A program made the translations under genes and the position numbers. Under the pieces are notes generated by a model. It was not told where the DNA came from and ran no database searches. It worked only from the letters and a program-made list of their open reading frames with translations. Source: an uncultured Actinomycetota bacterium (GTDB lineage Bacteria; Actinomycetota; Actinomycetes; CAVWCF01). From it: a DNA stretch of 64,000 bases. The stretch lies in the NCBI GenBank assembly GCA_963753435.1, contig CAVWCF010000001.1, positions 768,001 to 832,000 of the forward strand, read 5' to 3'. Shown piece after piece: positions 40,412 through 42,215 of the stretch. Every line of letters starts with the position of its first letter. Within the stretch, counting starts at the first letter, position 1.

Positions 40412-40566
40412 GGTGGCTCCTTAAGAAGTCCTCCGCGGCGATCGCGGTCATTGGGTCTTTCCCCCATGGCACCGCGTTTGGATGCACCCCGATGCAAATT
40501 GCTTGGCCGCTGATTGTTCGGCCCGCCCGGGATGCGGTCTCGGTCCCGATACGGCACAGTGGTTTC

Positions 40567-41499
40567 ATGTTCAAGAACTTCTGGTACGCCGTTGAGTTCT
40601 CCAAGGTCGTCAAGCCCGCCGGGAAGCCCGTCCCGGTCAGGTGCCTTGCGCAGGACTTCTCCCTGGCGCGCCTGCCCAGCGGTCAGGTACTCGCGTGGAA
40701 CGTGGACCGTCCCGCCAACGAGTTGCTGCCCGTCACGGAGAAGTACGGCTTCGTTTGGATCTTCCTCGGCGACCCGGACTTCCCGGTCGACCAGCGGCCG
40801 CCGATCCCGGATTGGCCGGAATGGGACGACCCCGCCTTCGCCGGCCACAACGTGACCGGCGAGTGGCTCTGGAACGCCGGCGTGGAACGAATCGTGGAGA
40901 ACGGCGTTGACGTCGCCCACACGCCGTTCGTGCACGCGGGTCAGTTCGGCAACCCGAAGCGACCAGAAGTTCCCGAGTACGAGGTCATCACCACCGACTG
41001 GAGCGGCGAACTGACTGTCGCGCTGCACCCGCCTGCGCCCAAGGGTGTCTTCTCCGTGGTCAGCAAGCGCGGCGATCTGGACAACCGTCCGCCAGTGGTC
41101 ACGAGCACCGCTTGGTTCCTACCCAACCTGATTCGGTTGAAGGTGCGACTGCCCTTCGGTGAGTTGTGCCTTTACGACACCAACATCCCGATCGACAAGA
41201 CGACGACCCTCACCAAGTTCGTCTCGCTGCGTTCCTTCTTCACCGGCAAGTGGGCCGACCGGGATGCGTTGCGGCGCGTCTACCCGATCTTCAAGAGCGA
41301 TGCCGCGGTGGTCGAGGCGCAGCGACCAGAACTCCTGCCGTTCGACCTTTCGGCGGAGTTGCACGTTCGTTCCGACCGCATGGCCATCAGCTACCGCAAA
41401 CGGCGGCAGGAACTCCTTGAGGCCGGCTGGGGACACGCGGACACCGACCGCTACCTGGGGTCGACCTTGGCGCTGGAGGCGGCAGACTCCGTGGCATGA
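40567..41499 (+). CDS. Rieske non-heme iron oxygenase family protein (PAO/VanA-like catalytic domain) lacking the Rieske [2Fe-2S] motif
   Basis: N-terminal KNFWYAV and PVTEKYGFVWIFLGD frame the Rieske fold, but no CxH or CxxH is present; mononuclear Fe motif ENGVDVAHTPFVH and distal D (FKSDAAVVEAQ) are intact. Confidence 0.8.
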   Translation: MFKNFWYAVEFSKVVKPAGKPVPVRCLAQDFSLARLPSGQVLAWNVDRPANELLPVTEKYGFVWIFLGDPDFPVDQRPPIPDWPEWDDPAFAGHNVTGEWLWNAGVERIVENGVDVAHTPFVHAGQFGNPKRPEVPEYEVITTDWSGELTVALHPPAPKGVFSVVSKRGDLDNRPPVVTSTAWFLPNLIRLKVRLPFGELCLYDTNIPIDKTTTLTKFVSLRSFFTGKWADRDALRRVYPIFKSDAAVVEAQRPELLPFDLSAELHVRSDRMAISYRKRRQELLEAGWGHADTDRYLGSTLALEAADSVA

Positions 41500-42215
41500 C
41501 GGAGTCGCCGGTGGTTACCGGCTCACTGCTCTTCGAGCTCGCTGACCGGTTGCGGGATCGGCTGGTCGGCAGGGTTAACGGACAGGCCAGCCCGGAAGGC
41601 TTCGCGCTGCACCTGGCCGACGGCACGACTATCGGGTCCGTCGAAGTGTGGCGCTCTGATCAGGTCCGGATAGCCGTAGAGGTCCGATTGGCCGACCCGG
41701 TGCGCGGCCTAGCGGCGTCCATGCTGCACGCGTTCTCGCCGCGGTCGTCACAGTCGCCGCATCTCGTGTGCGACATGGCGCTGCTCGGCCACAAACTCGC
41801 TGTCGGCGCGGACTTGGTACCGCGAACCGACCCGGCCGACACCCCAGAGTGGGCAACACAGGTCTGGGGACCATTGCTGCCCGCCCACGAGCTCTACCTG
41901 GCCACCCCGGGGGTGCGCACGACCACGGATGTAAGCGCGCGGTTGCGATGGCTGTGTTCGCCGTGGCTGATAACCACTTCCCAAGGCTTCGAAAACACCG
42001 ACGCCGCCGAGCGCATTCTGGAAGCTCTCATCGACCGATTCGCCGAGCTCAGTGGGCCCCCCGGGCCTTCCGCCGATGCCCTGTGGGCGGACCGCGATCG
42101 TCGCTACCTGGCGGCACTGTTCGCCGAAGAAACCGACCCTGTTTGGGAAGTCATGTCCGAACTGATCGGAGAGCCCACCCGCGACCGCCTGGTCTCGCTC
42201 ATGGTCGACGGCTGA
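41496..42215 (+). CDS. Red chlorophyll catabolite reductase / ferredoxin-dependent bilin reductase-like protein
   Basis: SMLHAFS...PHLVCD...DLVPRTD...SPWL...RDRRY...F..ETDPVW...LIGE pattern recalled from bacterial RCCR-like proteins; ATGA overlap with the upstream oxygenase gene. Confidence 0.6.
   Translation: MTESPVVTGSLLFELADRLRDRLVGRVNGQASPEGFALHLADGTTIGSVEVWRSDQVRIAVEVRLADPVRGLAASMLHAFSPRSSQSPHLVCDMALLGHKLAVGADLVPRTDPADTPEWATQVWGPLLPAHELYLATPGVRTTTDVSARLRWLCSPWLITTSQGFENTDAAERILEALIDRFAELSGPPGPSADALWADRDRRYLAALFAEETDPVWEVMSELIGEPTRDRLVSLMVDG

Follow-up and report, generated by a model that had tools for sequence, protein, structure and literature searches.

NdmC, the catalytic subunit of the methylxanthine N7-demethylase NdmCDE of Pseudomonas putida CBB5, lacks a Rieske cluster and is fed by the NdmD chain (accessible part of PMC10380055). 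In the two-gene CAO of Micromonas and other algae (MpCAO1/MpCAO2), the iron motif and the Rieske cluster reside on separate chains, both of which are needed (accessible parts of 10.1101/2025.02.10.637544 and PMC9615114). In chlorophyll breakdown, plants couple the Rieske oxygenase PAO with the reductase RCCR (accessible part of 10.1101/2021.10.07.463469).

Here we describe a gene for a Rieske-less mononuclear-iron oxygenase (P0001; 310 aa; 40567..41499, + strand), recognized by translation, Pfam, an AF2 model and Foldseek in a window of 64,000 nucleotides, the whole stretch of DNA analysed, from the genome of an uncultured actinobacterium (G000). Like NdmC it encodes a catalytic subunit without a Rieske cluster, and as in the two-gene CAO its iron motif stands on a chain separate from a Rieske-bearing one. 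However, the NdmD-type Rieske and NdmE-type GST genes of the NdmCDE system are clustered, whereas neither kind lies beside the P0001 gene, whose donor is likely encoded elsewhere. The split of the algal enzyme is reciprocal, but the candidate partner of P0001 is a paralog that retains both centres, so dependence would run in one direction. No complementary partner of this family carrying the Rieske cluster without the iron motif was found in G000. The plant couple resembles the bacterial family in pairing a Rieske oxygenase with an RCCR-fold reductase, but the bacterial operon adds hydrolase, nitrilase-family, SDR and Asp/Glu racemase-family genes, and the PaO Pfam domain was absent from P0001 at E≤0.1 and from its paralog at E≤1.

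Architecture and recurrence of the Rieske-less gene

Translation from 40567 gives MFKNFWYAVEFS...DFSLARLPSGQVLAW-NVDRPANELL-PVTEKYGFVWIFLGD in a single open frame of 310 aa. In the AF2 model, residues 1-67 (40567..40767, + strand) retain strands of the Rieske fold (E5-11, E22-26, E29-35, E41-45, E56-59 and E62-67; block pLDDT 90-97) without the cluster-binding subdomain. Alignment and spanning contigs place a ten-residue linker, N45-L54 (40699..40728, + strand), in the position of the CxH...CxxH subdomain. P0001 has a distance of 57 residues between its N-terminal KNxW motif and the KY(G/N)xxx(W/F) strand, as against 103 in the full-length paralog of the same genome, a net shortening of 46 residues exactly at the expected CxH...CxxH site. 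P0001 contains 2 Cys and matches VanA_C (PF19112) with an E value of 1e-21, and Pfam returned no Rieske domain at E≤0.1.

The motif E111-N112-x2-D115-x2-H118-x4-H123 (40897..40935, + strand), which by homology supplies the bridging Asp and two Fe-ligand His, is invariant in 24 of 24 alignment rows and aligns with the same motif of GxtA/SxtT. D245 (41299..41301, + strand), by homology the third Fe ligand, is invariant in the 10 clade rows and conserved at 90% or more across 126 rows. Compared with an α3 VanA_C-type α-subunit, P0001 has the 2-His-1-Asp ligands and bridging Asp (by alignment) and the SRPBCC-type catalytic fold (PF19112, AF2 model and Foldseek), and the Rieske CxH...CxxH site is absent. 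The model, built from 126 sequences, reached a pLDDT of 92.6 and a pTM of 0.90; an earlier one built on 10 sequences (pLDDT 54.7) was set aside. Its top Foldseek matches were GxtA/SxtT at TM 0.75, with GxtA/SxtT and NdmA spanning TM 0.71-0.76. The α3 enzymes GxtA/SxtT, NdmA/NdmB and DdmC (VanA_C) thus share with P0001 the fold (TM 0.75 to GxtA), the Fe motif and a C-terminal ExHxxSD...YRR motif, but they carry their own cluster, and at ~20% structural-alignment identity their substrates are not transferable. H94, Q126 and P240 are invariant residues specific to the P0001 clade, with P240 in the helix that bears D245. By its domain content and aligned ligands, P0001 is a Rieske-family oxygenase subunit minus the [2Fe-2S] subdomain that has kept its mononuclear-iron ligands.

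The junction is spanned gap-free by contigs from three studies, namely a 1377-base contig (run X1, possibly the source sample), one of 181 bases (X3) and a 186-base contig from an RNA library (X16). Neither a joint in the gene nor a longer allele is listed among the spanning contigs; this support comes from assembled contigs rather than raw reads, which a rare longer allele could escape. Parts of the gene are also represented in contigs from RNA libraries (X15, X16 and X19), which stop short of demonstrating transcription. The identical junction occurs in 18 sequences, all in frame and down to 58% identity; it is common to nine database proteins (58-95% identity), 5 of the 27 genome loci and 4 of the 5 metagenome loci, the fifth of which starts downstream of the junction. 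Among the 120 homologs listed (387 found), 15 lack PF00355, and 9 of these 15 are clade members. P0038, P0068, P0102, P0104 and P0111 also appear Rieske-less in this listing, but these five calls are truncated at the N terminus and group with full-length proteins. P0119, known from a single 1183-base contig, carries a different, larger deletion at a distance of 0.02 from its full-length neighbours; it is likely a one-off and was excluded.

On trees of the catalytic domain only, the Rieske-less sequences form one clade (supports SH 0.98, 99 and 96/98). NG86 dN/dS was 0.03-0.24 in 14 close clade pairs, compared with 0.05-0.23 in 8 of 9 full-length control pairs; the distant clade pairs (31 of 45) gave 0.36-0.81, values at which dS is saturated and GC3 is 0.86-0.98. 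The close-pair ratios indicate that the P0001 gene evolves under purifying selection. A preceding reading of the window from its letters alone (the sequence-only reading) had described Rieske-fold flanks joined by about 10 residues (NVDRPANELL), a missing CxH...CxxH region with just 2 Cys, and an intact frame with retained Fe ligands, all of which agrees with the 310-aa translation, the Pfam result and the presence of D115, H118, H123 and D245. It had also judged decay and an indel error improbable and proposed looking for the deletion in independent genomes and for support across the junction; recurrence within one clade of 18 sequences, the signature of selection and the gap-free contigs of X1, X3 and X16 bear this out.

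Similar spacing occurs outside the clade. The best 150 of 1735 profile hits include 72 with both marker motifs, and 11 of these beyond the clade's representative have similarly short spacing and are spread over several distant branches; P0254 and P0209 are among the 11. P0254, presumably NdmC-like in view of its gene context, has the same internal deletion as P0001 at an identity of about 28%. P0001 is nested among full-length actinobacterial proteins, apart from P0254 and P0199 on a tree that does not include NdmC itself; the separate branch and low identity argue that the P0001 deletion is independent of that in P0254. Relatives of P0254 on rhizobial plasmids stand in a trio of Rieske-domain gene, Rieske-less oxygenase and GST gene (L129:5339-7487 and L130:5333-7484; the query gave 207 records at 80% cover or more), which by its gene content is an NdmCDE-like system. 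Several other relatives differ in layout. P0209 (537 aa, Logan only) has a rearranged order, with a Rieske-less oxygenase domain followed by a complete C-terminal Rieske domain; P0160, P0162, P0164, P0204 and others, algal-looking proteins of 580-670 aa that are extended at the N terminus, rank among the nearest of the family's distant relatives; and P0169 lacks the cluster region, perhaps through a gene-model error. Because short spacing recurs on distant branches and NdmC and MpCAO are precedents, the Rieske-less architecture is a known, recurrent kind. From its tree position and gene context, the P0001 clade is an independent case of it, of neither the NdmCDE nor the two-gene CAO type.

The locus and the operon of the full-length paralog

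The neighbours of the P0001 gene are fasciclin, RCCR-like, Eis-like, rpiB and pepN genes, and the Rieske-less gene lies upstream of eis, rpiB or pepN in 11 of 11 loci, as far as the loci extend. The base composition of the region gave no sign of an island. A promoter-like element recognized by conservation (40531..40560, + strand) consists of GATGCG (40531-40536), 18 bases and the -10-like CACAGT (40555-40560), with 6 bases to the ATG. In the general form GATGCG-N18-nAnnnT-N6-start, GATGCG and the hexamer's A and T show no variation across the upstream regions aligned (10 of 10); a sigma-70 consensus scan upstream of the gene found no match. A leaderless transcript from the gene's own promoter is likely. 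Genome-wide, the promoter-like motif has 7 matches before ORFs of at least 60 codons, and the 6 shown include no gene of the paralog operon described below, so the motif gives no evidence for co-regulation of the two. GATGCG...TAGCCT...ATG also precedes the gene at G000:C1:124845 (- strand), perhaps by chance, and the 211-aa product of that gene presumably resembles the TIGR03085 family. In genome G041, an ORF divergent from the Rieske-less gene (L036:3956-about 4700, - strand) may encode a heliorhodopsin, judging by a motif.

The gene that follows (41496..42215, + strand; 239 aa) overlaps the oxygenase stop (ATGA) and probably encodes a diverged protein of the RCCR/ferredoxin-dependent bilin reductase fold. 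The protein alone gave no Pfam match; its alignment profile matched Arabidopsis RCCR (E 0.0012) and phytochromobilin synthase (E 0.005), and tblastn against the operon RCCR-like gene of full-length loci gave E values of 1e-7 to 1e-21. The operon copy itself matched PF06405 at E 8e-4, below the cut-off. By these matches the downstream gene is probably a diverged copy of the operon's second RCCR-like gene, and the window would thus hold a second oxygenase and RCCR-fold module. Its dN/dS of 0.08-0.17 indicates purifying selection, and it is found beside the Rieske-less gene in 8 of 11 loci and absent from the other 3. The DSH and FHLD histidines are lost in 7 of 7 downstream copies and kept in 10 of 10 operon copies. 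In the downstream protein, two acidic residues remain that have aligned counterparts in plant RCCR, where they are presumably catalytic.

The full-length paralog (G000:C1:1567957-1569222; 421 aa) is 46% identical to P0001 over the catalytic part, carries both the Rieske cluster motif and the iron motif, and is unlinked to the Rieske-less gene. G000 has only four other Rieske proteins, and no further member of this oxygenase family was found there besides P0001 and the paralog. P0001 is probably no recent duplicate from the co-resident operon, as it does not group as the paralog's sister (AU p 0.049, borderline).

The operon lies outside the window, at about 1563900-1574700 of G000:C1 (L027:5862-16744, - strand), and is conserved in actinobacteria; cultured carriers such as Actinoplanes exist. 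Its order is nitrilase-family, RCCR-like, alpha/beta hydrolase, oxygenase, second RCCR-like, 323-aa protein, SDR, membrane protein and Asp/Glu racemase-family. The gene after the oxygenase is RCCR-like in 21 of 22 full-length loci, and the upstream trio is also present in 16 of the 22. In gene content it looks like a tetrapyrrole-catabolism pathway. The 323-aa protein matched unnamed clusters only, plus a DUF3598 lead at 0.87, and the hydrolase matches PETase/cutinase structures, with chlorophyllase only at E 0.26. A literature search, mostly without subscription papers, found no description of this operon or of the Rieske-less clade. A third RCCR-family gene of G000 stands alone beside glnA (G000:C2:126917-127774, - strand), and a separate RCCR-family match occurs in the four other genomes searched.

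Co-occurrence and the predicted complex

Each of the 6 genomes found to carry the Rieske-less gene also encodes a full-length paralog; these genomes represent about two lineages, and many of the genomes examined are incomplete. The 61 genomes around G043 comprise 3 with both genes, 2 with the full-length gene only and 56 with neither, and among 401 genomes of the class 16 match, 3 with both and 13 with the full-length gene only. The Rieske-less gene without the paralog was found in none of these 61 and 401 genomes. G000 and G001 split from G041 and G042 in both the Rieske-less and the full-length subtree. In three of the six genomes (G001, G002 and G043) the paralog is in frameshifted pieces, for which assembly indels are the likely cause because other genes there are also fragmented. 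The genomes of family f9 (G010, G095, G211, G231 and others) are small and carry two or three full-length paralogs; no Rieske-less copy was found in them.

The clade has a second loss, at the C terminus: the tail motif IxSPxxR/K is present in 0 of 17 clade members, compared with 138 of 144 full-length proteins. The prediction puts the lost tail on the electron-donor face, and 21 of the 29 residues predicted for that face have no counterpart in P0001. Family-conserved positions are kept at 42 of 50 sites in the catalytic part, whereas residues 1-80 keep 18 of 31 (p 0.018). Invariant positions make up 18 of 29 in the predicted acceptor face and 76 of 171 elsewhere, a difference that falls short of significance (p 0.11).

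A predicted complex of P0001 with the paralog scored 0.82, and the best of 3 controls scored 0.00. The runs shared at least 98% of contacts, with a partner pLDDT of 88. This mark was attained by 116 of 157 solved pairs and 2 of 215 mismatched pairs. The score may reflect memory or likeness only, because α3 trimers (SxtT, NdmA) have been solved and close cousins pass too. In the prediction, the cluster loops of the paralog (H48, H70) and the beginning of its tail (346-350) contact P0001 residues 111-122, 133-135 and 247-269. From the interface list and conservation, QRPELLP...ELHVRSD (residues 251-270; 41317..41376, + strand) is the predicted docking face for the partner's Rieske cluster.

Electron source, substrate and significance

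We favour, with a probability of roughly 55%, the reading that P0001 serves as an acceptor-only subunit and draws electrons from the complete paralog, on whose Rieske cluster it docks. The sequence-only reading had suggested electrons from a Rieske-bearing paralog encoded elsewhere, to be sought in the genome and modelled with P0001, and this idea has gained ground. A paralog-fed mechanism is the best supported because the paralog exists, co-occurs in all six genomes and has its cluster loops placed on P0001 in the predicted complex. The same reading had overlooked the loss of the C-terminal tail, the likely RCCR-fold identity of the downstream gene and the existence of Rieske-less subunits such as NdmC and MpCAO1 as a known kind.

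In the proposed mechanism, the paralog's cluster loops would dock on P0001 residues 111-122 and 247-269, and electrons would pass from the paralog's cluster through D115 to the Fe of P0001, as across α3 subunits. Having no donor face, P0001 would end the oligomer as A-B or an open A2B instead of closing a ring; because the ring could not close, the paralog's electrons would be diverted to a second pocket, P0001's own, and the same pathway would thereby gain a different substrate or regiochemistry. In support of the acceptor role, no Rieske-only or GST gene adjoins the P0001 gene. Counting against it, co-retention would also be expected from a shared pathway without contact, and the paralog is complete and self-sufficient, with most genomes that have it being without the Rieske-less gene.

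Alternatively, P0001 could be a stand-alone oxygenase transiently reduced by a soluble carrier (a small Rieske or plant-type ferredoxin), the paralog being kept through the shared pathway. An acceptor face would fit any Rieske donor, G000 encodes Rieske ferredoxins of 108 and 125 aa, and the P0001 gene has a promoter-like motif of its own; P0209, which joins a Rieske-less domain to a whole C-terminal Rieske domain, indicates that donors other than a sister oxygenase occur. However, the 108-aa ferredoxin belongs to the suf operon, and the 125-aa protein does not track the Rieske-less gene: it was found in 4 of the 6 and also in many genomes that lack the family (7 of 61 and 32 of 401). No carrier gene is adjacent in 11 of 11 loci, as far as they extend, and we regard this alternative as unlikely.

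We consider it about equally unlikely that P0001 has a non-redox or regulatory role without O2 turnover, binding iron and a pathway pigment (sequestering, channelling or sensing) or capping or damping the paralog oligomer. The altered RCCR-fold neighbour, with its lost histidines, and the clade-specific invariant changes, including P240 in the helix of D245, would fit such a role; the Fe triad and D115, all kept in the clade, argue against it, as do the acidic residues retained by the RCCR-fold neighbour and the absence of that neighbour from 3 of 11 loci. An assembly artefact or decaying pseudogene is very improbable: it can point to the truncated calls and to P0119 as a likely one-off among other Rieske-less entries, but it is opposed by the shared in-frame junction, the low dN/dS in close pairs, the contigs of three studies and the conserved chromosomal site and upstream motif.

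For the favoured acceptor-only subunit, a linear or cyclic tetrapyrrole breakdown product is a candidate substrate at about even odds, because the oxygenase pairs with RCCR-fold genes as plant PAO does with RCCR. A broader picture, tentative and rather doubtful as a whole, is that actinobacteria of sediment and soil break down chlorophyll-derived pigments by an undescribed pathway of the PAO/RCCR type. One lineage would have added to it an acceptor-only subunit that steers the complete enzyme's cluster towards a different substrate or bond, a switch of specificity achieved by deleting a paralog's donor half.

If the acceptor-only reading is correct, Rieske-less oxygenases would have a third mode of operation, in which a complete enzyme lends its cluster to a donor-less paralog, as distinct from the dedicated donor chain of NdmC and the reciprocal split of the algal CAO. 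The likely novelty relative to both lies in a complete enzyme as partner, with no dedicated Rieske-only donor. The pair would then be a natural case in which to test electron transfer across subunits, and would suggest a rule for designing mix-and-match oxygenases. The recurrence of the clean deletion in several distant branches is a reason not to discard Rieske-less genes as pseudogenes. The paralog operon offers candidate genes for the consumption of tetrapyrrole pigments by non-photosynthetic bacteria.
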